Below, in pieces: positions 6,273 through 21,404 of a stretch of DNA of 26,646 nucleotides. Every line of letters starts with the position of its first letter. Position 1 is the first letter of the stretch. Source of the DNA: an uncultured Alcaligenaceae bacterium (GTDB taxonomy: Bacteria; Planctomycetota; Planctomycetia; Gemmatales; Gemmataceae); the NCBI GenBank assembly GCA_964474955.1, contig CAYYUU010000002.1, positions 1 through 26,646 of the forward strand, read 5' to 3'. A program made the translations under genes and the position numbers. The notes beneath the pieces were generated by a model. The model worked only from the letters and a program-made list of their open reading frames with translations, had not been told where the DNA came from and did not search any database.

Positions 6273-8198
6273 ATGCCAGCGATGTCGACAACCCCAGAAA
6301 ACCAAACGCCTTCGTCCCAAATCCAGACCGACGGCCCGCAAGCACAGGCCACCCAGATTCAAGCCGACAAACCTGCCACGAGTCCGCTGCCGGACGTCCA
6401 GAGCCAACGCGAGCCAACGGCACGCCCGGTCCGACTCTGGCCGGGGTTGGTCCTCAGTGTTTTTGGAATCGTTGTTTTCGTGCTGACGTACTTCCTGGTC
6501 GACCTTTTCGAGGCAACCCAGGAATGGAGTAACTCGATCGTGGTGCTTTTCTCTGCGGCCTTGGCCCCCGCGGCGTGCTCAATTTTCCTACTCATTTGGT
6601 GGCTATTTTTTAGTCGGCAGGCTTGGTTCACCAAGGGGAAAGTCCTTGCCCTACTCGCACTGGCCACGACGGCAGTGATGTTCGCGTGCGAGGAGGGTGC
6701 TCGATTCGTCGTCGCGATGTGGGGAATCCCGGCGACAACAGCCGTGATGGTTTTGTACTGGGCGATTTCATCGTCGACGGCCAGCCGGAGTCGAAACATC
6801 GGTTTGGTACTTGTGACCTTGGCCAGTCTTCTGCCGTGGGTAGCATTTCGATTTCAAGGCTCTGCGGGGAATGCTCTGCCGAACTTGACCTTGCGTTGGA
6901 ATGTGACGGTGCGAGACGTCCAAGAACCCGACGAGAACGTCAATCTGGCTTCGATTATGTTACCGAAGGCCGAAACGGTTCGTGAAGATTGGCCCGGATT
7001 TCGCGGACCGAACCGAGATGCGATCATTCCGAACCTAACCATCTCGCCCGAGTTTGTCACGACACCGCCCAAGCCCCTTTGGAAGACGGACGTCGGAGAC
7101 GGCTGGTCGTCGTGCGTCATCGTTGGGAATTTGCTCTACACCCAAGAACAACGCAACACAGAATACGAAGCGGTCGTCTGCTACGACGCGGACAACGGGG
7201 AAGCGATTTGGATTCACAAGGAGAAAGCTCGATTCTTCGAGAGCCAGGGGCGGGCCGGCCCTCGCGCCACTCCGACTTACGAAGACGGCAAGCTCTACGT
7301 CATGGGTGCGACGGGTCTTTTGCTGTGCCTGGACGCGCGAGACGGTTCCAAGAAATGGGGCGTCAACATCACCGATACCATCCAGGCCGAAGTGCCGACG
7401 TGGGGCTTCTCGGCCTCGCCTTTGGTTTATAAGGACACGGTATACGTCCAGGGGGGAGGGAAAAATAATCAACCGATCTTGCTGGCCTTCGACAAGAAGA
7501 CCGGCGATTTCAAATGGGGCGCCGGGTCGGGCGACACGCAATATTGTTCTCCGGTCCTCATGAAGCTCGATGGCGTGGAACAAATCATCATGCAATCCGG
7601 GTCCGGCATCACGAGCCACGATCCGAAGAGCGGGGATGTCCTGTGGAAACTCAAATGGGGTGCGCCCATGCCATCGAGTGTTGTTGCAATGCCCTGCAAG
7701 GTCGGGCCGAATTCTCTGGTCGCGGCAGTGGGTCATGGTTCCGGCATGAAACGATTGAAGGTCACGAAATCCGGTGGAAAGTGGAACGTCGAAACGCAAT
7801 GGAAAACGACCCGATTTGATCCGCGGTTCAACGACTTCATTTGCCACAACGGATACCTGTATGGGCTCTCTGCGGGCTTCCTCGAATGTTACGACCTCGA
7901 AACCGGAAGCCGCAAATGGCGAGGCGAGAAATACGGTTTCGGGCAATTACTGCTGGTCGGCGACAAGCTACTCGTGGTTTCGGAGAAGCGGGTGTTTACT
8001 GCCGAAAAAGGTTTTGTTGTGTTGGTGAAAGCCGACCCCAGCAGATTCACGCCTCTCGGGAAGTTTCTCGCCATCAACGGAAAAGCCTGGAATCATCCAG
8101 CCATCGCCGACAATAAGTTGTATCTGCGGACGGACAAGCAGATGGTTTGTTATCCGCTCATGTTGGGCGAGAATGCTCCCGACGCGAAGAAGGAGTGA
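6273..8198 (+). CDS. Membrane-anchored PQQ-binding-like (BamB-like) beta-propeller protein
   Basis: The N-terminal ~200 aa contain several hydrophobic TM helices. These are followed by DWPGFRGPNRD, GDGWSS, GPRATPT, WGFSASPL, YCSPV, WNHPAI and LYLRT, typical of planctomycete PQQ_2 propellers. An alternative start is at 6282. Confidence 0.9.
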   Translation: MPAMSTTPENQTPSSQIQTDGPQAQATQIQADKPATSPLPDVQSQREPTARPVRLWPGLVLSVFGIVVFVLTYFLVDLFEATQEWSNSIVVLFSAALAPAACSIFLLIWWLFFSRQAWFTKGKVLALLALATTAVMFACEEGARFVVAMWGIPATTAVMVLYWAISSSTASRSRNIGLVLVTLASLLPWVAFRFQGSAGNALPNLTLRWNVTVRDVQEPDENVNLASIMLPKAETVREDWPGFRGPNRDAIIPNLTISPEFVTTPPKPLWKTDVGDGWSSCVIVGNLLYTQEQRNTEYEAVVCYDADNGEAIWIHKEKARFFESQGRAGPRATPTYEDGKLYVMGATGLLLCLDARDGSKKWGVNITDTIQAEVPTWGFSASPLVYKDTVYVQGGGKNNQPILLAFDKKTGDFKWGAGSGDTQYCSPVLMKLDGVEQIIMQSGSGITSHDPKSGDVLWKLKWGAPMPSSVVAMPCKVGPNSLVAAVGHGSGMKRLKVTKSGGKWNVETQWKTTRFDPRFNDFICHNGYLYGLSAGFLECYDLETGSRKWRGEKYGFGQLLLVGDKLLVVSEKRVFTAEKGFVVLVKADPSRFTPLGKFLAINGKAWNHPAIADNKLYLRTDKQMVCYPLMLGENAPDAKKE

Positions 8199-8814: not shown

Positions 8815-11800
8815 TCAACTCCCCTCCTTCTCCGATTTCCGGACCGCAAGTCGCAGTCCTTCTCCTTCGAACCGTAGATACAATCCATGATCCACGACTC
8901 CGTTGTCGACACGGATAAGGACCTGGTTCCATCCTTTTGCCATGCCCACCACGACGCGGTCGGAATCGGGATTCGCGGATCGAGGCTCGTTCACGTCGTG
9001 AACCTTGTTTCCATTGATCCACACTCGCATCGTGTCGTCCGACCCACAAATCATCGTCGCCCGCTGAGCTTTCGGCGAGAACACGTATGTCAGAGCATAG
9101 GCCGACACGTTCTCACGCTTGAAACGGCTCTTCTAGTTCACGAAGCCATTCGGTTCGGCTCGCGGAATTTCCCACTTGAGTTTTTTCTTCCCGACCTTGT
9201 AAGTGGCATCCGGAACAGGATTTTTCTCCGGCGGATGCGAAACACTTCGGTCTGAGGAGAACGGCCCGACGACCCAGAACTCCAGACCCATCCCACGAAT
9301 CTCTTCCTGGGCCTTACGGTTTTTCAAGAACGCTACAAGGTCGAGGAACTGCTCGAACGTCAGGTGTTTGACCACGTCATCGGGCATCAACGATGTTGCC
9401 GACGGTTTGATCGCCTGGAGGTCATTCGTTGCGATGCGAATTTCTTTCGCATTCGGATCCCGGAGAACGACTTCGTTCGGAGTTTGCGAAACCTTCAACC
9501 CCGTGAAAATCTGCCCCTTCTTCGTAAGAGCCGTGTAACTCTGGAAGCCTTCTTTGATTTCCTTGCTCGGCTCAAGAAGATGCTCGATGATCTTCTCGGT
9601 CGATTGCGTGTCCCACGAACGAGTGAGGTCGGGACCAACGTTCCCGCCGACGCCTTCGAGTTGGTGGCAACTCATGCACGCGATTTTCTTGTGGCTCAAA
9701 TAAAGGACTCGACCGCGAATTGGATTCCCACGCTCGCGAACGAGCTTTCGAATCGACTTGAGATCCTTCGGCGACACGTTCAACAAGCCGCTCTTCATGA
9801 CCTTTTGCAGAACAGGAGTAACGGCCTTGTTCCTCTTGGCGTAGCGCCGAAGGACTTCCGCGACCTGTGGCAACAACGCTCGCGGGAGTTTCCCGTCGAG
9901 GAATTTCTGGCCGACCAACATGGCTCCGCTGGCTCGGGTGCCGAGGACCGTGATGGCTTCCTTTTGCAATGAGAAATTCGACTTCGGCAAGACCTTGGCC
10001 GCCAGCCTCGCTGCCGCGACGCCATCGATCATGCCGAGCGCCCGGAGTGCTTGGGCTTGTACGTCCTGACCTTCCTCCGACGAACCGAGTTCTTTCTCTT
10101 CGACCATCTCTTCCAAAATCGAGGCGGCAGCTTTGACCTTCAAAACGCCGACGGCGTTGATGAGTGCGCTCCGTTCGCCGTTCTTCAAGCCCGAGACCGC
10201 CAACGCTTTGACCAACACCGGAGCCGCTTTTTGGACGCGGTTGTTAGCGATGGCTTCGACGGCCGCGATCCGCACTTTCATGTTCGGTTCGTCGTCGAGA
10301 AACCGAACTAACAACTTGTTGACGGTCGGAGAATCCAACGCCTTGGATGCCGCCAGCACCTTGAGCCCGGCCAACTTGATCTTCTCGAGCTTGGCCAGGT
10401 TCTTCGCCGGTTCTTTCGACATCCGGGCGAGTTTGTCCACCTTCACCAGATATTTGACGATGGGTTCGACCGACACGGCAGGCTCGAGTTGATAGTTCGT
10501 GTATGATTCGATCAGGCGAGCCTTTTGGTCTCTGCTCAAATGGTAGTTGGTGAGCAACTTGGGCAACGCCTTCGAAGCCGGTCGAGTCCGGAAGGCCAGA
10601 AACGTTTCGACGACGGTATCGAGGTCGCGGGCATTTCCGGAGTTGGCCAACGTGTCGAGCGACTCCATTCCTTTCTTGCCGAGACGCTCGATGCTTCGAA
10701 TGATGGCGTCGCGAAGAAACGCATCTTTTCCGTCGTTGAACTTCAAGACGTTCACGAGAGCATCGCCGGCACCGTTCGCGCCGATTCGTCCCATGGCCAG
10801 TACGATCGAACGTAGCACCTCGGGTTCGCGTTCGTTGAGCACCCGATTCAACGCCGCGTGGGCTTTCTTGTCACCCTTCTTCGAATTCAGCCCAAGACCT
10901 TCCGCCGCAAGCCTTCGCATGTCCGGGTCGAGATCACGAAGCAGTTTTTGGAACGCTTTCGACACGTCCGCATCCCAAAACGACTGGACGACACCGACCG
11001 CGGCAATCCTCGCTTCGAGAGGTTTCTCGACGTCGACGATAATCTTTAAGAGTGCCTTTCGGTTTTTCTCGCCACGCTTTCGGAGTTGGGTTTGGGCCTT
11101 GCAGCGGTCGCTGAAGTTCTCGCTTTCGAGCGTCTTCAAGAGTTCTTCGTTGGACTGCTTTGCGATCTTGGCCCAGCTATCCATCTCCCGCAACGCGATG
11201 GCCAGATGGTTTTTCGTTCCGGCCCAGCTGACACGATAAATACGCCCTTTGGTTCCGTTCCCCCAGAGTTTCCCCGCGCCGCCAGAATCGGTCCGCCAAT
11301 CGCAAATGTACATCGCGCCATCCGGCCCAAGAATCATCTGGCAAGGACGGAACAACGGATCGTTCGACTTCATGAATTCAAATTCGTGCGTCACGCGGAA
11401 CGTCGCGCCGTCTTGCTCAACGACATACGCACGGATCAACTTTCGGAAAACGTCCGGATAATACAGCACGCCCCGGTAGTGTTTTGGGAAATACGTGTCG
11501 TTATAGATCAAAAGGCCCGCTGGCGAACCACGGCCCGTTTTCAACATCGGCGGGAGTTTCCCCGGGAGTTCGCCATACACGGCGCTTCGCGTGAAGTCTG
11601 GACGGCAACACCTCGCGCCCGGTCGCAAACGCCATCCGTAGTCAATTCCCTCGGGGATGTGCATGAGCCGACACCCTGTCCACTTCGATCCGTCTTCGTT
11701 ATCGTTGTCAACGTGGAACATGTTGAACTTTGTGTCGAACGCGACGTCTCGATAGGGGTTACGAAATCCTCGGGCGAACTCGTGGAGTTTGGTCCCGTCC

Positions 11801-12534
11801 GGAAGACAGCGAAAGACCGCACCGGTTCGCAGAACGTTGACCCGAGCGCCGTCAGAACCTTCGACATAGTTATCGTCATCCCCCGATGTGATGTAGAGCC
11901 AACCATCGTTGCCGATCGTCAAACCCGAAACTTGGTGATGGTGAAAGCCACAGAATCCCTGAGCGATGACCTCTTTCTTTCCATACGGACCTTCCGGAGC
12001 CGTCTGCTTGTAGCGACGCACGGTCCCCTGACCGCTCAGATAGACATACCCATCGTGAACCAGAATGCTCGAAGGGAGTTCGTCCTTGAGAACCACTTTG
12101 GCCTTGTCGAATTTGCCGTCATTGTCGGTATCGCGCAAAACCTTGACTTGATCCGGAATCGGCTTCTTCATGATGGCGACCTTGCGTTTCGATCCGTCCT
12201 TGTACGTGAACGTCACCGAACTCGCGGGAAAATTACCGCCTTTCCACTTCACCCATTCGAGGACATACAAGGTGCCGTCGGGGCCGAACGTCATCCCCAC
12301 CGGATTGATCACCTGAGGAGCTTCCGCAACGATCTCGACCTTGAGACCTTCGGGCGTGATGTATCCCTTCAAGCGAGGATCGTTCTTCCCTTGGTCGAAC
12401 GCCTTGAACCACTCGGGCGTCGGCTTCGGCGGGGATTGTTGGAACTTCAGATCTTTCGGCACGTCTGTCTGCGTGAGTCCCCAATTGCAGGCAAACGCCA
12501 ACACGATGACCAGACCTAGTAACAACCGTTTCAC
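8815..12534 (-). CDS. PVC-type heme-binding CxxCH protein (signal peptide, beta-propeller, HEAT repeats, cytochrome c, C-terminal jelly-roll), interrupted by an in-frame TAG at 9135-9133
   Basis: The likely start is GTG 12534 (VKRLLLGLVIVLAFACNWG) after GGAGG. Motifs include GFRNPY, GRGSPAGL, DPLFRP, DW, HEAT-like repeats, CMSCH and VGPDLT. The same frame continues past the TAG as KSRFKRENVSAYALTYVFSP...GSDD to the stop at 8815. Confidence 0.88.
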
Positions 12535-12864
12535 AGAAATATTCCTCCATCTCGGGAAGATGAGTTCGTGGTCGAGAAAAGTAAATGTCGCGCGTAGAGC
12601 CCGACAAGCGTTGGATTCGAGAACGGGAAAATTGGTTCCGGAATCTGTCTTCCAGAGTACATCGGAAGCAAAGGGAGTGGGACGAAAAAGTTGTCGGATC
12701 ATCGGCTGGGAAGTTGCTTTTCGCTCTGCGAAAAGTTTTCTGTCTTTGGCACCTACCTTCTTTCCATCCTCTCCCTCTCTTGTCTCCATACGTTCCCAAC
12801 TCCCATCGGTTTCATATAAAGACCACTCAAACAACCCTCTATACATTGCCATCCCCTCCCACGA

Positions 12865-14832
12865 ATGAGGATTCGAATCGTGCCCCCGAATGTTGATCTC
12901 GATGCCGAGTGGTTGGAGACGGACGGTCTCGGTGGTTATGCTTCGGGGACGGTGGGCGGATGTCGCACGCGGAGGTATCACGCGGTGCTTCTCGTGGCCA
13001 AGACGCCGCCGACAGGGCGTTTCGTTCTGGTCAATGGTTTTGACGCATGGGTCGACACCGATTCGGGACCGTATCCGATTTCGTCGCAATATTACGTCCC
13101 CAACGTCACCACGCCCGACGGGGCCAATCGCATCCAGGGGTTTACGCTCGATCCGTGGCCACGCTGGACGTACCAAATCGGCAAAGACACGATCCTAGAG
13201 CAAGAACTCTTCGTCCCGAATGGCAAACAAGCAGTCGTCTTGCGGTGGCGTGTGCTCAGCGGTTCTCGTTTTGCGAGCCTTCGATTGCGCCCCTTTCTGT
13301 CGGGCCGAGATTACCATTCGTTGCACCACAGCAATCCGGGCTTTGCGACCGGCGTGGAACAACAAGGCGACCGGGTTTCGTGGTTCCCGTATCCGGGAGT
13401 TCCGGAGATACACGCCCTCGCCAACGCCTCGTATCATCACAGTCCAATCTGGTACTACAACTTTCTGTACACGAAAGAACGCGAGCGAGGAATGGACTCG
13501 ATGGAAGACCTCATGTCGCCGGGGGAGTTCACGTTTGAATTCTCGGCGGGTGACGCCATCTTGATCTTCCACACGGCTCTGGATTCCGAAACGTCCCTCG
13601 ATGCTAGTTGGGATCCCTCTCAGGCTTACTCCGCTCTCGCCAGCGCCGAACAACTCCGTCGGGAACGATTCCCCTCTCGTCTACATCGAGCCGCCGACGA
13701 ATACCTTGTTCGTCGGGGTCATGGCAAAACGATCATTGCCGGATATCCGTGGTTTACGGATTGGGGACGCGATACGTTCATCGCCATGCGTGGCCTGTGT
13801 CTTGCGACAGGTCGGCTCGACGTTGCAAAAGAAATCCTCCTGGCCTGGTCGTCGGCGGTCTCGGAAGGGATGCTCCCGAATTTGTTTGTCGATGCCGGGG
13901 ACGCGCCGGAATTCAATTCTGTGGATGCCTCCTTGTGGTACGTCATAGCCGTGCACGAGTTTCTGGAAGAGGCGAGGCGTTCGGAGTTTGGGGTGACGCA
14001 ACAGGAGAAACATCGGCTGGAACTTGCGGTCGATGCGATCTTGCGAGGATACGCGAGTGGGACCCGGCACATCATTTCGATTGACCTGGACGGATTGCTG
14101 TCGGCGGGCGAAGCGGGCGTGCAACTCACATGGATGGACGCCAAAGTGGGCGACTGGGTCGTCACTCCTCGGATCGGCAAGCCCGTCGAAGTTCAGGCCC
14201 TTTGGTTGAACGCGTTGTGGATCGGCGGGCAACGACACGAAGAATTCCAAGAATGGTATGACCAAGCAAAAGAGTCCTTCGAAAAAAGATTCTGGTATGC
14301 CGACGGCCAATATTTATACGACGTCGTGGACTTGGACCACGCCCACGGGAACGTCGACTCCACGCTCCGTCCGAATCAAATCTTCGCAGTCGGTGGACTA
14401 CCGCTCCAGGCACTGGACGGAAACCAAGCTCGCAAGGTCGTCGATCTGGTCGAGCGACAACTTTATACACCGATCGGCGTTCGCTCGCTCGCGCCCGACG
14501 ATCCATCGTATCGCCGGAAGTATCAAGGCGGCATCTTCTCTAGAGACGGAGCGTACCACCAGGGAACCGCCTGGGCGTGGTTGCTCGGTCCGTTCGTCGA
14601 AGCGTGGGTCCGAGTTCGCGGATCGACGCGAACAGCCATCGAGGAGGCACGTCAACGATTCTTGCCTCCGTTGCTGGATCACCTCAATGTGGCTGGTCTC
14701 GGCCATGTCTCGGAGATCGCCGACGGAGACGAGCCACACACGCCAAGGGGATGCCCGTTTCAAGCCTGGTCGTTGGGAGAGTTGTTGCGGTTACACGAAA
14801 AGGTCTTGGTTCCGACGGATCGCGGCGAATGA
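12865..14832 (+). CDS. Amylo-alpha-1,6-glucosidase (glycogen debranching enzyme)
   Basis: 655 aa with EWLETDGLGGYASGT, RRYHAVL, IIAGYPWFTDWGRDTFIA, LTWMDA, GKPVEVQALW, RPNQIFA, YHQGTAWAWL and PRGCPFQAWS. Confidence 0.95.
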   Translation: MRIRIVPPNVDLDAEWLETDGLGGYASGTVGGCRTRRYHAVLLVAKTPPTGRFVLVNGFDAWVDTDSGPYPISSQYYVPNVTTPDGANRIQGFTLDPWPRWTYQIGKDTILEQELFVPNGKQAVVLRWRVLSGSRFASLRLRPFLSGRDYHSLHHSNPGFATGVEQQGDRVSWFPYPGVPEIHALANASYHHSPIWYYNFLYTKERERGMDSMEDLMSPGEFTFEFSAGDAILIFHTALDSETSLDASWDPSQAYSALASAEQLRRERFPSRLHRAADEYLVRRGHGKTIIAGYPWFTDWGRDTFIAMRGLCLATGRLDVAKEILLAWSSAVSEGMLPNLFVDAGDAPEFNSVDASLWYVIAVHEFLEEARRSEFGVTQQEKHRLELAVDAILRGYASGTRHIISIDLDGLLSAGEAGVQLTWMDAKVGDWVVTPRIGKPVEVQALWLNALWIGGQRHEEFQEWYDQAKESFEKRFWYADGQYLYDVVDLDHAHGNVDSTLRPNQIFAVGGLPLQALDGNQARKVVDLVERQLYTPIGVRSLAPDDPSYRRKYQGGIFSRDGAYHQGTAWAWLLGPFVEAWVRVRGSTRTAIEEARQRFLPPLLDHLNVAGLGHVSEIADGDEPHTPRGCPFQAWSLGELLRLHEKVLVPTDRGE

Positions 14833-14899
14833 AATGGTGTGTTGTTTTGTTTTTTTAGTAGCAGGCACACTCCGAACGGGAAATAAAGAAATGTCCGTT

Positions 14900-14932
14900 T
14901 CGTAGGCACACGCGGCTCGCGTCTACCTACGA
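14900..14932. terminator. Hairpin downstream of the debranching-enzyme gene (possible terminator)
   Basis: The outer stem is TCGTAGG/CCTACGA and the inner stem is ACGCG/CGCGT. There is no clean U-tract. Confidence 0.35.
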
Positions 14933-14960
14933 CAAAGACGACAAACCGGACAGCAATAGA

Positions 14961-14992
14961 TTGACATTAGTCTGCATCGATGTGCATCGATG
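14961..14992 (+). promoter_or_regulatory. TTGACA box followed by a tandem 10-bp repeat, upstream of the giant gene pair
   Basis: TTGACA is at 14961-14966. TGCATCGATG occurs twice, at 14973-14982 and 14983-14992. There is no recognisable sigma70 -10 element at canonical spacing. Confidence 0.35.
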
Positions 14993-15048
14993 GCGATGGA
15001 ATGGTCGTTTGGCTTTCTATTTCCTAATCCCTATTCTCTCATCAACCC

Positions 15049-18000
15049 ATGAGCCAATTCACTCCAATTCAAAGAACGTTCTTGACCAACGTGTTGTCCG
15101 TCACCGTGACGCCGCGCACAGGGATTTCCAAGCTCAAACCGAAACGGTTTCGATCGGACGAGGAGAACCTGGCGACCGATCTCGTCAATTCGTTCGAAGA
15201 TTACCAAAAGGAAGAATCGAAGATTTTGGAAGAGGTCAAAGAGGTTGGAAATCAACTCAAGGATCCGAAATACAAGGCCATTCCCGGAGTCGCGAATCTT
15301 GCCAAGGATCTGGTGAAAGAACTCCAGGGCGCTCAACAAATTGCCAAAGCGGGAAAGAAAGAAGACAAGCAACAAGCCTTGGCCCAGTTCAAGCAAGCTG
15401 CGGGATTGCTCGACAAGATCAAGAAGGATACTCGGCAGGTCCTCGACACCCTCGATGATTACCTGGGCGGCATGAAGGAAGCCACCGACCTGCGAGACAA
15501 ACTCTCGACCGAGAACCGGCACCCTCATCCTCCTTTTGACAAGCCCCTCAGGGACCTCGTGAACGAAGCAGTGACTTTGGCCACGGCAGCCAAACACGCC
15601 GAGGCGGTCGCCAAGTTGGGGACGGCCAAATCGCTGTACGATCAGGGGCAGAAGGCCGTCCAACTGGCCCACGATCAGGACGTTGGCAGGGCCAAGTACG
15701 AACCCATCTACAAGGAATTGCGCAAGCGGGCCGTCGAAGGGCTGGCCGAACTCAGGGACTTGCCCGGTGCGAAGTCCGACCACGACGCCATCAAGCAAAA
15801 GGTCGACACGGCCGATACTGCGGCACAGCAGAATCGATACGAGGACGCCTATCACGAACTCAAGGGCATCGAAAAGGACGTAAAGAAGGCCCACAAGAAT
15901 GCCCAGAGCTATCACGACAAGGCCGGCAACAAGGACTACCGAAAGGTACTCGAGGAAGCCGAGGAGGCCTACAAGACACTCGCCGGTTTGATCGAAATGT
16001 CCGACCCGCAAACGCTCGAAAGCTTCCGCAAGACTATCGACGATACCCTCCGAGCCCTCGACGGCGTCAAGAGCAAAGACGAAACGACCATCACCCCACA
16101 GATCAACGCTCTGAAGCATTGTATCCAACAGATGCAGGTCGAAACCAACAAGATGAAGGATAAGGCCGACGAAGCTCGGAACCTTTACAACGAACTCGAC
16201 AAGTCCGTCTTGACCGATCTGAGTGCCCTCATGCCCACCGCCGACTTCGCCCCTTGGGGTTCGAGAGTGTGGTCGGCTCGGACGTTAATGGGGGCCGGTC
16301 AATATCAACAAGCCATCGACGAACTGGAGCAAATCAAGAAAGACGTCAAAAAGACCCAGACGAAGTACCAGGACAAAGCCAAGAAGTGGGAAGACCTGGT
16401 GAAGGACTACGAAACGAACCACAAGGCACTCGTCACCAAGGGCCAGAGTCACACTTTCTTCCCGGACGTCCAGACCGCGGCGAACGCCGTCGACTCGGCC
16501 TTGCAAACTTCCGTCCTGCGAGTGAAGGAGACGCACGACTACGACGAAATTCATAAAGTCTTCCAGCAAACTCTCAAAGACAAGATGCCAACGATCACGA
16601 GCGGCCTCGATCAATTCGAGAAGTCCAAGGCCGCTTTCGACGAATTGAAGCAAGCCTACAACGATGGGGCTAAAGAAGTCCGAGAGAAAATCCAGGAACT
16701 CCAAAAGAAAGAAGGCGACACCGAACCGTTCACCAAGGCCCTGGCCGACGAGGAGACCGAATACACAAAGACCGTGAATGGGCTCCTCGGTAAACCTGCC
16801 AGCGCCATCACTCCCGCCAAGGACACGACCGTCCAGCGCCTCAAGAAAATCGTCACCGACATCGAGGCCGTCCTGGGCGACACCCGAAAGCTCCAGCAAA
16901 GCAAGGATTCGGCGACCACGAAGCAACTACAAGCCAAAGGACAAAAACTCGAAAGAGAAATCCAGAACGCCTTGAAGATATTGGCCCTGAGCGATCCCAC
17001 CAAGGCCAAGAACTATACCCAGGATCTCCAAAACGCCGGATCGAACTACGATCAGGCTCACATCACCGAGTTGGAAAAGGTCAAGACGAAGGCCGAGAAC
17101 GCCAACGAGGAGAACGCCAACAAGGTCAAGGACATCAAGGAAAAGGCAACCACGCAAGCCAAAGAGTTGAAGGACCTGGCGGGCAAGTTGGAGCGAGGAA
17201 TGCCCATTCTCCACATCGGCGGACACAAGGACTACCACCCCTATTTTGAATCGCTCAAGGGGGAAATCCAGGACGCCCTGGCAATGTCCGAAAGTTCTGT
17301 GTTGGAGGTCGCCCAAGCAGGCAAGCGGAAGCTCGACGAACTCAAGCAAAAGATCGAGCGGATGCAAACCGAAAACGACAGCAAGGATCCCAATGCCAAA
17401 AACTACGCCGCTGTCGATAAGGGGATCAAGGAGATCGAGAAGTTGCTCTCATCCAAGGATCTGAAGGAGTGCAAGCCGACCGCCCAGAAAGTCTTCGAGC
17501 ATCGACTCAAGAACGAGGTCCGTCCCAAAATCTATGCCCTCTCGCCGGAAGCCGCACTGGCCAACACCGGCCCACTCAAGGAGTTCAAGAAAGAAATCGC
17601 CGCAGCCATTCGCGAGGCCCAAAAGCGAACCGAACAACGGAAGACGCTCAACGAGGACGGCGAGAAGTTGCTCAAGGAACTTGAAGAGTTGGACAAAAAA
17701 TCCGCCTTCCGGAAGCAACTCGAAGACCAAATCAAGGGAGCCATGAAGCCCGGCGAAGACAAGGAAGAAACGGCCATCTTGAACATGAAAAATTACGAGA
17801 GACAAATATCGCAGGCCAAGGACCCACAGAACTTGCTGATCCTTGAACAGGTCGCCCACCAACGAGAGTTCGAGGCCGAAAAGCAAAAGGCCGCGTGGGA
17901 AGCGAACAAGAAGATTTACGAGGAGACGACCAAGAAAGACCTCGAAGAAGCGTACAACGAGGCCGAGAAAAAGACCCGCGACGGGGCCCGTTATAAAGAA

Positions 18001-18531
18001 GCGGGACAGTTGTACAAGGAGGCCCTCAAGCACGCCAAGAAGGAAAACTACCTTGCCGCCAATCAGACGATCGAGGAGGCCACCTCCGCGGCCCTAACGT
18101 TCATCGCGAGTCCTCAGGGCGACAACTTCACGGCGCGAGGCAAACTGCCGAAAATCTACAAAGGATGGCAGCAAGCTGTCTCGGCCTTTTTGGCGAACAT
18201 CTCGGCACTCAAGAAGAAGATCACCGAAGTCGCGGCGACCGACCCGAGCGTCGATCCCAAGAATGCCATCGCGGCGCTGGATCTGGCGGCCCGGTCGTTC
18301 GACGCCCGGATGTTCGACCAGACCATCAAGGACATCACCGACAAGGACGCGACCTTGACAAAGATCCGCGTGGCCAAAGAAAACGGATTACGGTATCTGC
18401 GCCAATATCGCAACGTGCTGGACACCGATCCGGTCATCGAACACCTGCGCGAGAATCCGTTTACCCAGTTCACGACCGTCATGTTGGAAGACAAGATTCG
18501 GGATTTTGAATTGAGCCTGCTTCGTTCGTAA
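15049..18531 (+). CDS. Large alpha-helical / coiled-coil hypothetical protein A (1160 aa)
   Basis: A long ORF with strong GC3-biased coding pattern, rich in K/E/A/D/L, with no signal peptide or TM segment and with internal helical repeats. Confidence 0.9.
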   Translation: MSQFTPIQRTFLTNVLSVTVTPRTGISKLKPKRFRSDEENLATDLVNSFEDYQKEESKILEEVKEVGNQLKDPKYKAIPGVANLAKDLVKELQGAQQIAKAGKKEDKQQALAQFKQAAGLLDKIKKDTRQVLDTLDDYLGGMKEATDLRDKLSTENRHPHPPFDKPLRDLVNEAVTLATAAKHAEAVAKLGTAKSLYDQGQKAVQLAHDQDVGRAKYEPIYKELRKRAVEGLAELRDLPGAKSDHDAIKQKVDTADTAAQQNRYEDAYHELKGIEKDVKKAHKNAQSYHDKAGNKDYRKVLEEAEEAYKTLAGLIEMSDPQTLESFRKTIDDTLRALDGVKSKDETTITPQINALKHCIQQMQVETNKMKDKADEARNLYNELDKSVLTDLSALMPTADFAPWGSRVWSARTLMGAGQYQQAIDELEQIKKDVKKTQTKYQDKAKKWEDLVKDYETNHKALVTKGQSHTFFPDVQTAANAVDSALQTSVLRVKETHDYDEIHKVFQQTLKDKMPTITSGLDQFEKSKAAFDELKQAYNDGAKEVREKIQELQKKEGDTEPFTKALADEETEYTKTVNGLLGKPASAITPAKDTTVQRLKKIVTDIEAVLGDTRKLQQSKDSATTKQLQAKGQKLEREIQNALKILALSDPTKAKNYTQDLQNAGSNYDQAHITELEKVKTKAENANEENANKVKDIKEKATTQAKELKDLAGKLERGMPILHIGGHKDYHPYFESLKGEIQDALAMSESSVLEVAQAGKRKLDELKQKIERMQTENDSKDPNAKNYAAVDKGIKEIEKLLSSKDLKECKPTAQKVFEHRLKNEVRPKIYALSPEAALANTGPLKEFKKEIAAAIREAQKRTEQRKTLNEDGEKLLKELEELDKKSAFRKQLEDQIKGAMKPGEDKEETAILNMKNYERQISQAKDPQNLLILEQVAHQREFEAEKQKAAWEANKKIYEETTKKDLEEAYNEAEKKTRDGARYKEAGQLYKEALKHAKKENYLAANQTIEEATSAALTFIASPQGDNFTARGKLPKIYKGWQQAVSAFLANISALKKKITEVAATDPSVDPKNAIAALDLAARSFDARMFDQTIKDITDKDATLTKIRVAKENGLRYLRQYRNVLDTDPVIEHLRENPFTQFTTVMLEDKIRDFELSLLRS

Positions 18532-18561
18532 AGGCCCACCTCGCTCGAATGGTCGAATGAG

Positions 18562-18611
18562 TTTCTACCAACTCGAAGCGCGAGGGAACAGGGAACAGAA
18601 AGACTCCCTCG
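18562..18611. repeat. Degenerate REP-like element between the two giant genes
   Basis: TTTCTACCAACTCGAAGCG-CGAGGGA aligns with TTTCTACAAGCCTGAAGCGTAAGCGAAGGA (8586). CGAGGGA (18581-18587) pairs with TCCCTCG (18605-18611). Confidence 0.5.
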
Positions 18612-18767
18612 TTCGCAGCATTATTGGCTCCGGCCCGCCACGCATCCCTTTTGTGCCAAAAGGCTGCGGGCGGACCTACGCGGATCGGGCTGGTGTCAGA
18701 CAAGGCCAACAAGAGGCAACGTCCTCGCACAGACTATCCCCACACAACTCATCAAGGACATGGCCCC

Positions 18768-21404: not shown

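Follow-up and report, generated by a model that had tools for sequence, protein, structure and literature searches.

We analysed a 26,646-nucleotide stretch of DNA from a member of the Planctomycetota (contig CAYYUU010000002.1, positions 1 to 26,646), referred to below as the window, and a pair of large genes within it, A and B, that encode unannotated helical proteins. The window is the entire contig C2 of an 8.35-Mb metagenome-assembled genome (MAG) of 1504 contigs (GC ~0.55). Gene A (15049–18531, + strand) encodes 1160 aa, as judged by its open reading frame (ORF) and translation, and belongs to the A/C gene family that precedes B elsewhere. Gene B (18768–21404, + strand) encodes 878 aa, as judged by its translation and an alignment with its homologues. 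Both genes are intact and co-oriented, and they are separated by a 236-bp intergenic spacer (18532–18767); the corresponding spacer is 93–105 bp in two relatives (L001 and L003). The reading frame of B is open from a TTG at 18624. We assigned its start to the ATG at 18768 because the conserved N-terminus, MALDDKQKQW, matches MALSEKQKQW of the nearest homologue. No promoter-like site was found in the spacer. Terminator-like sites across 14700–21800 were not above the shuffled expectation, and a promoter scan around the pair gave the same result. DNA of the window was detected in microbial-mat and stromatolite metagenomes, and the locus was found in no RNA run searched.

Distribution and gene order of the module

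Pfam, NCBIfam and PADLOC contained nothing for A or B with E below 0.08, and a scan of Pfam with hmmscan at E up to 1 returned only chance-level matches (4 for A and 2 for B). A word-seeded homology search found 4 relatives of B and 1 of A. The near-orphan status suggested by that search was overturned by a full hidden Markov model (HMM) search, in which the B profile matched 523 representative clusters (defined at the 50% identity level) with E no higher than 0.001, including 337 with E no higher than 1e-30. The B family occurs in six phyla: Planctomycetota, Pseudomonadota, Acidobacteriota, Myxococcota, Verrucomicrobiota and Thermodesulfobacteriota. Its named members are all called "hypothetical protein", and our literature search turned up no paper on the family. 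The RefSeq name "VapC family toxin" (type II toxin-antitoxin) was met on the B homologue of Qingshengfaniella; no PIN domain was detectable in that protein, and the name is probably a misannotation.

A scan of species genomes with B yielded 48 loci, hosted by Planctomycetota, Burkholderiales, Paracoccaceae, Rhodospirillales, Acidobacteriota, Myxococcota, Verrucomicrobiota and Thermodesulfobacteriota. Genes were called in all B loci and then clustered, and the neighbourhoods were compared. A co-oriented gene of at least 750 aa stands directly 5' of B, across a small gap, in 42 of the 46 full-length loci, and most of these genes cluster with A. Because this adjacency recurs in six phyla, the A-B pairing is far from chance. 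The original prediction, made from the window alone, had treated A and B as a functional pair, and the linkage of their homologues in nearly every genome carrying B agreed with it. In about half of the loci, an A-related gene of 300–900 aa, here designated C, lies ahead of A; C is usually present, with 450–720 aa. The nearest relative of the window pair (L001) shows the order C-A-B, and its B and A proteins are 57% and 52% identical, respectively, to those of the window. Protein A also aligned with the product of a 1178-aa gene in a type VI secretion system (T6SS) cluster (L003) at 24% identity over 1016 residues (E 2e-48). The module is normally one of three genes, C-A-B, and the earlier description as a two-component system was not supported. 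A and C resemble adaptors for docking more than they resemble subunits of a pore. No other gene family recurred beside the module in the loci examined for gene context.

We searched the MAG itself with tblastn and HMMs. No paralogue of A or B was found there, only a distant B-like gene of 1393 aa and C-like genes. The latter lie on three other contigs, on two of which B-related genes follow.

The family is spread across phyla. In the B tree, Planctomycetota sequences are interspersed with those of Pseudomonadota, Acidobacteriota and Thermodesulfobacteriota, and the label Planctomycetota needs at least five changes across supported branches. B of the window groups, with full support, with entries from Sphaerotilaceae, Bryobacteraceae and Desulfovibrionaceae. 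Several genomes hold two divergent modules (L071; L043 and L069; L037 and L045).

Genes of the Ion_trans family (voltage-gated-type cation channels) were observed at L037:12372–14284, L044:4885–5733 and L074:13697–14545. The first lies directly 3' of B (Puniceicoccales MAG), the second 5' of the module (planctomycete MAG) and the third between clpV and a gene that resembles a fusion of TssB and TssC, in the T6SS cluster of Pseudorhodobacter.

Protein folds and the predicted A-B contact

AlphaFold2 models of A and B were built with family alignments. Protein A is rich in K, A, L and E, and no 19-residue window of it reaches a Kyte-Doolittle (KD) value of 1.2. Its model (pLDDT 87.6, pTM 0.61) is wholly helical and consists of serial bundles, in keeping with the soluble helical rod that had been predicted. 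The N-terminus is an amphipathic helix with a conserved W or F, which reads QWCEEARKIL in many homologues and QRTFLTNVL in the window. The most conserved part of the A-family alignment is the C-terminal bundle (18112–18531, + strand; residues 1022–1160, the last three bases being the stop codon), which is the predicted B-docking domain. It carries the motif PxG...W..AV...D.NPF...L.DLE.NL; E1111 is invariant, and P1022, L1033, F1089 and P1137 are nearly so. Fold searches with A listed talin, vinculin, alpha-catenin and EzrA. These matches had E above 0.1 and were rejected as generic helical resemblance.

The model of B (pLDDT 84.8, pTM 0.79) comprises an N-terminal long helix with a small alpha/beta domain, a poorly conserved helical middle, two very long hairpins and a terminal four-helix bundle. 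The N-terminal domain (18768–19412, + strand; residues 1–215) contains W10 in its long helix and the motif PLVREGLxPET.VP..S.T; residues W10, P145, R148, S162 and Y175 are at least 90% conserved in 81 sequences. Hydrophobic hairpin 1 (20313–20528, + strand) is formed by helices 516–548 and 550–587, as assigned by DSSP on the model, with a turn at a conserved G-P-L-A-I and a hydropathy of 1.5–1.6. Hydrophobic hairpin 2 (20544–20795, + strand) is formed by helices 593–629 and 631–676 and has a Gly/Ala-rich, glycine-zipper-like tip (GAIIECAGGHIGVAVGKGLQAGATIAGA); G623, G630, G634, G638 and K639 of this hairpin are invariant among the five closest sequences. The hydrophobic stretches, at ~545–571 and ~608–651, flank the hairpin turns. 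A 19-residue KD value of at least 1.2 was reached in 90% (hairpin 1) and 86% (hairpin 2) of the 81 sequences, as compared with 5–9% for the other conserved domains. B has no signal or clear transmembrane topology, and its hairpins are amphipathic with conserved charges. The layout expected from the window sequence, a coiled coil followed by Gly-rich hydrophobic segments, was recovered as a charged helix and, after it, conserved Gly/Ala-rich hydrophobic helical hairpins. The region after hairpin 2 (20796–21047, + strand) holds the most conserved block of B, RPENRKLGL...NPTLAKYAxAWGA...DP. In the same 81 sequences R681 and N691 are invariant, and T693–Y697, A700, G702 and A703 are at least 90% conserved; the conservation of this 40-residue block (0.65) is the highest in the protein.

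Foldseek searches of the PDB and wide VIA-align searches with both models, and a search of the AFDB clusters with B, found no significant relative except two uncharacterised AFDB entries of the B family. Matches of B to MATE and MurJ (E 0.05 or higher, TM score about 0.1) were discarded as generic helical resemblance. A profile search of the PDB sequences returned only designed helical proteins and apolipoproteins, and no toxin. The fold searches also gave no significant match to SMC proteins, chemoreceptors or tape-measure proteins, the housekeeping folds that would have spoken against a membrane-active module.

We then predicted the complex of B (residues 1–860) with the C-terminal bundle of A (residues 1022–1160) in three runs, with three controls. 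The interface score ipSAE was 0.75–0.76 in the three runs, and the best of the controls scored 0.00. At least 94% of the contacts agreed between the runs, and the pLDDT of the partner was 83. In the calibration of the tool, 58 of 80 solved complexes and 2 of 110 mismatched pairs attained the ipSAE mark; this calibration holds only roughly for the A-B complex, which was built from unpaired custom alignments. The predicted interface involves residues 3–43 (including W10) and 140–150 (the PLVREG motif, with P145 and R148) of B, and residues 1058–1080, 1103–1138 and 1151–1160 of A, around the invariant E1111. It falls on the most conserved residues of both proteins. The model lends support to, but does not prove, binding of the N-terminal helix of B by the C-terminal bundle of A.

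Similar elements recur along the module. The C family shares the terminal motif of A, ...D/N-P-L-I..-I-D-x-N-P/G-F...L..L. Within their last 60 residues, 22 of the 42 A proteins have NP followed by F, Y, W or I, as do 7 of the 21 C proteins, 8 of the 280 control proteins and none of the 46 B proteins; most C proteins show relaxed forms of it. The N-terminal W/F helix of A is reminiscent of QKQWLTRL in B. Because C ends in an A-type bundle and A begins with a B-type W/F helix, the sequences suggest a head-to-tail docking of C to A and of A to B.

Two further loci of the MAG may be read in the same way. On contig C79 (L021:4571–10341), a C-like gene is followed by the gene for the distant B-like protein of 1393 aa, which has hydrophobic helices and an NP..AKMY block (BLAST E 4e-4 against B). 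On contig C781 (L022:957–4456), a C-like gene and a 172-aa gene are followed by a gene for a protein whose N-terminus (MPITTEQRSWADTFLG) bears the B-type motif. Both loci are probably additional modules with the same docking logic. A domain of ~130 aa (KGKARKFFLIYKGASIKTLVVFKKG...) was observed alone at L003:12715–13113 (− strand) and at the N-terminus of two C-like proteins encoded in the same T6SS cluster, L003:4466–6316 and L003:15185–16558. The small N-terminal domain of C gave no family match and no usable language-model feature match.

Co-occurrence with type VI secretion

The module frequently adjoins T6SS genes. On one metagenome contig (L003/L011) the order is tssA-tssB-tssC-hcp-hcp-tagJ-tssE-tssF-tssG-clpV-C-A'-B'; on the opposite strand after B', a PAAR gene directly precedes a C-like gene, which is followed by a fused TssB-TssC-like gene. 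Pseudorhodobacter sp. E13 has the arrangement tssK-tssL-tssM-tagF-pppA-A'-B, with a convergent Ser/Thr kinase gene after B and with tssA...clpV on the same contig. The module of Aquariibacter albus begins ~3 kb past tssK-L-M-tagF and a fused TssBC-like gene. A TssBC-like gene lies within 10 kb of the B locus in Aporhodopirellula, and the distance between B and tssC is 13 kb in two complete genomes of the class to which the window belongs. At another locus (L025), a DUF4280 (PAAR-like) gene stands directly 5' of C-A-B; a 132-aa gene at L024 had no similarity to it. The module therefore lies in or beside T6SS or PAAR loci in some genomes, and B is nested in T6SS-positive genomes.

All 5 isolates had TssC, and so did 35 of 39 other genomes that carry B; the four in which it was lacking are MAGs. 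In an even sample of 301 Paracoccaceae, B was found in 11 genomes and TssC in 77 (26%), and all 11 B-positive genomes had TssC. Among 200 genomes of the window's own class, B was found in 4 and TssC in 84 (42%), and all 4 B-positive genomes had TssC. Together, 15 of 15 B-positive genomes in the two clade samples were TssC-positive, with two seed genomes uncounted; these counts are phylogenetically non-independent, and their direction is uniform. The MAG itself carries TssC, TssF, TssK, TssL, a TssM N-domain and PAAR on other contigs. The suggestion that the pair is exported by a system encoded elsewhere thus gained a likely candidate in the T6SS, whose genes lie on other contigs of the same genome and adjoin the module in several relatives.

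The association is narrower than with the T6SS at large. A fused TssBC-like gene was found in 33 of the 301 Paracoccaceae and in 11 of the 11 B-positive ones, which ties B to one T6SS subtype. In the sample of the window's class, a second weak VipB match was present in all five B-positive genomes, that of the window included.

The fused gene encodes VipA/TssB-like and VipB/TssC-like domains in 600–1300 aa and lies in T6SS clusters besides normal tssB and tssC. It was present in every B-carrying genome checked, with examples on contig C318 of the MAG (L079:2649–5951) and at L074:14548–18483, L076:8166–10007 and L003:17108–18922. Long acidic tandem repeats of the EEDPELAALLADLEG type are often inserted or appended. 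We considered the repeat-rich middle and tail as a relative of A or C; it consists of acidic tandem repeats of the DPELAALLADLE type without similarity to either, and the idea was dropped.

B is present in ~5–14% of the sampled T6SS-positive genomes (4 of 84 and 11 of 77) and in about a third of the genomes with the fused-TssBC subtype (11 of 33). The majority of modules stand as orphan loci, well away from the T6SS cluster. Sparse presence, distant loci, dual modules and mixing of phyla are typical of a cargo or accessory module and not of a core component. A replacement of the TssJLM membrane complex by A and B was considered and rejected because the canonical components are present: TssK, TssL and the TssM N-domain in the MAG, and full TssK/L/M in Pseudorhodobacter. 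No domain of the known adaptors (DUF4123, DUF1795 and DUF2169) was found in A, B, C-like proteins or eight long members of the B family in searches of Pfam or NCBIfam. The genes downstream of B in the loci compared are unrelated housekeeping genes, regulators, ABC exporters, a kinase and ion channels.

In the window, the pair stands among metabolic and periplasmic genes, as originally described: phosphoglucomutase, glycogen debranching enzyme, PQQ-like beta-propellers, a DUF7133-HEAT-cytochrome c protein and a xylose-isomerase-like TIM barrel. The window was also correctly said to hold no secretion gene. Paralogous PQQ_2/BamB-like beta-propeller genes (6273–8198 and 22904–24136, both + strand) lie one on either side of the region. 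The 399-aa gene just 3' of B (21699–22898) had no family match and is not kept beside B elsewhere. The 1347-aa DUF7133-HEAT-cytochrome c ORF (9133–13176, − strand), counted from its first TTG, overlaps the divergent debranching-enzyme gene (12865–14832, + strand) by ~310 bp, and its true start is probably further downstream.

Interpretation and comparison with known systems

We give an even chance to the reading that A and B belong to a T6SS cargo module, with A (and C where present) as helical adaptors or co-effectors and B as a membrane-inserting effector. A and B would then be the last two genes of a three-gene C-A-B module working with the T6SS. A would be a long soluble rod, whose C-terminal "NPF" bundle is predicted to clamp the N-terminal amphipathic helix and the PLVREG loop of B. 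C, encoded elsewhere in the MAG, may link the C-A-B chain to the PAAR/VgrG spike, through its small N-terminal domain or another part; such a contact would fit the two loci at which PAAR or PAAR-like genes stand directly 5' of C-like genes. Before delivery, the Gly/Ala-rich hairpins of B would be packed in a soluble helical bundle. After delivery by the T6SS, they may enter the membrane of a target and disturb it or make it permeable, possibly by forming a pore. Because no immunity gene is conserved, the target could be eukaryotic, for example the grazers of microbial mats, or the protein could be harmless to the producer and its kin. In its most specific form, this reading describes a chain of more than 300 kDa, C-A-B, that is held together by a docking code of "NPF" bundles and W/F helices, hangs from the PAAR/VgrG tip of the fused-TssBC T6SS subtype and delivers an immunity-less membrane-inserting helical protein to eukaryotic grazers or rival cells. 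We regard this full version as possible but doubtful.

Several observations weigh against a cargo role, besides the rough calibration of the contact score and the non-independence of the genome counts mentioned above. The window has no C, and the debranching-enzyme gene occupies the upstream position. The hairpins are moderately hydrophobic (KD 1.2–1.7) with conserved Lys and Glu, and burial in the protein core or anchoring in the membrane of the producer would suit them equally well. No fusion to a trafficking marker (PAAR, VgrG, Hcp, Rhs, MIX, FIX or RIX) was found by Pfam in A, B, C-like proteins or eight long members of the B family, and a combined A+B cargo of ~230 kDa would be large. No immunity-like gene is conserved 3' of B across the gene contexts examined; the lack of such a gene is unusual for an antibacterial pore former. 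In Pseudorhodobacter, the pair lies between pppA and a kinase gene, a position typical of T6SS regulators. One alternative is that A, B and C serve one T6SS subtype as accessory parts and are not secreted, with B anchored by its two hairpins in the inner membrane of the producer. A and C would then be cytoplasmic helical scaffolds by which the machine is positioned, regulated or stabilised, perhaps as part of the threonine-phosphorylation checkpoint. The pair of Pseudorhodobacter sits inside the main cluster, with tagF-pppA on one side and the convergent kinase on the other. The nesting of B in Paracoccaceae with the fused gene, the second VipB match in all five B-positive genomes of the window's class, the missing immunity gene and the generic resemblance of A to talin, vinculin and EzrA-type scaffold rods all point the same way. 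However, B is found in only 11 of the 33 genomes with that subtype, the modules are mostly distant from the T6SS cluster and sometimes occur as two divergent copies, and the family has been strongly transferred across phyla. B also lacks a signal or clear transmembrane topology, its amphipathic hairpins carry conserved charges, and PAAR or PAAR-like genes directly precede C-like genes at two loci. We consider an accessory role unlikely.

Two explanations that dispense with the T6SS fared less well. A T6SS-independent cytoplasmic or membrane system, serving membrane remodelling, the cytoskeleton or defence, might ride on the same mobile islands: ~80% of the loci have no T6SS gene within 10 kb, TssC was not detected in four B-carrying MAGs, and neither protein has a known function or fold. 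Such independence seems improbable: a T6SS accompanies B in all isolates and complete genomes that carry it, independent lineages have the module within T6SS operons, PADLOC found nothing, and the four exceptions are incomplete MAGs. The module might also be an RTX-like helical pore former that leaves the cell through a type I secretion system (T1SS; an ABC exporter with HlyD), and the correlation with the T6SS would then reflect shared ecology or islands. A T1SS ABC exporter does abut the module in three alphaproteobacterial loci, with HlyD in one, which also counts against T6SS cargo. On the Qingshengfaniella alkalisoli plasmid NZ_CP042263.1 (L080, locus 10173–20858), genes for an ABC permease/ATPase and HlyD stand directly 5' of C-A-B. 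At L042 and L048, ABC_membrane and ABC_tran genes stand directly 3' of B; four further loci have them within 10 kb. By protein-language-model features, the RTX pore domain (0.85) was the nearest named family and SseF (0.76) was also among the nearest, which is a weak lead and bears equally on the membrane hairpins of the cargo reading. On the other side, an adjoining exporter was seen in only 3 of ~50 loci, the Qingshengfaniella plasmid carries a T6SS too, and the association with the T6SS is far broader. No RTX repeats, recognisable C-terminal T1SS signal or Pfam RTX match were found, and the confident compact helical folds of the module are atypical of T1SS substrates before export. We judge export by a T1SS to be highly improbable.

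On the cargo reading, the widespread unannotated family is new and its job is probably of a known kind, that of T6SS cargo and adaptor; the unusual part is the three-gene head-to-tail architecture without an immunity gene. Recognition and loading of large cargo is a less understood area of T6SS biology. The markers MIX, FIX, RIX, PAAR, Rhs, Tap and Eag cover part of the effector repertoire, mostly in Proteobacteria, and to our knowledge T6SS function in planctomycetes is essentially unstudied. If the A-B docking is true, it would provide a new testable loading code and a sequence marker for further cargo, and the same N-terminal motif is already seen in the second module of the MAG. If B inserts without an immunity protein, this would point to an anti-eukaryotic use of the T6SS in microbial mats and by planctomycetes. 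A chain of more than 300 kDa would represent a new cargo-loading principle and a new fold for a T6SS pore or translocon. In the case of an accessory role, the module would add a new component, regulatory or anchoring, to a T6SS subtype.

The module can be compared with several known systems, two of which had been proposed as analogues at the outset. Bipartite and tripartite alpha-pore-forming toxins of the ClyA superfamily (XaxAB/YaxAB, Hbl/Nhe, AhlABC and MakABE) share the layout: the helical partners are co-encoded, the long hairpins have hydrophobic tips, and the hydrophobic segment is concealed in the soluble form. Kinship with them at the sequence level was not supported, as Pfam gave no HBL, HlyE or XaxA-type match and the profile search of the PDB gave no toxin. 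The translocator and tip proteins of type III secretion systems (T3SS; SctE/SctB/SctA) likewise combine a hydrophobic hairpin protein with a soluble helical partner and have no Sec signal. Pfam, the PDB and AFDB held no match to them, no T3SS genes were noted in the ~50 gene contexts examined, and the associated machine is the T6SS. Both analogies are of layout, and kinship was not borne out.

T6SS adaptors offer a closer parallel. RIX proteins, Tap/Tec (DUF4123) and Eag (DUF1795) are encoded directly upstream of the cargo effector, bind it and are needed for its loading onto the spike. The predicted grip of the C-terminus of A on the N-terminus of B resembles this arrangement. In contrast to those adaptors, A and C are far larger and contain no RIX, DUF4123, DUF1795 or DUF2169 domain, and we know of no described T6SS counterpart of a head-to-tail chain from C through A to B.

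VasX of the Vibrio cholerae T6SS (with the accessory protein VasW and the immunity protein TsiV2) has more than 1000 aa, is mostly helical and has C-terminal membrane-acting hydrophobic helices. It relies on an accessory protein of its own that is encoded upstream, its gene often lies apart from the core T6SS genes, and it acts on eukaryotic grazers. A and B had no Pfam match to VasX, MIX or colicin, and no sequence or fold match to colicin pore domains in the PDB, so a pore former of the VasX/colicin type was rejected. The module also differs from VasX/VasW in that the partner is a rod of 1160 aa and not a small adaptor, C is usually present and no immunity gene is conserved. In function, the closest likeness of the C-A-B module is nevertheless to VasX and VasW, along with the secreted-adaptor logic of the RIX proteins.

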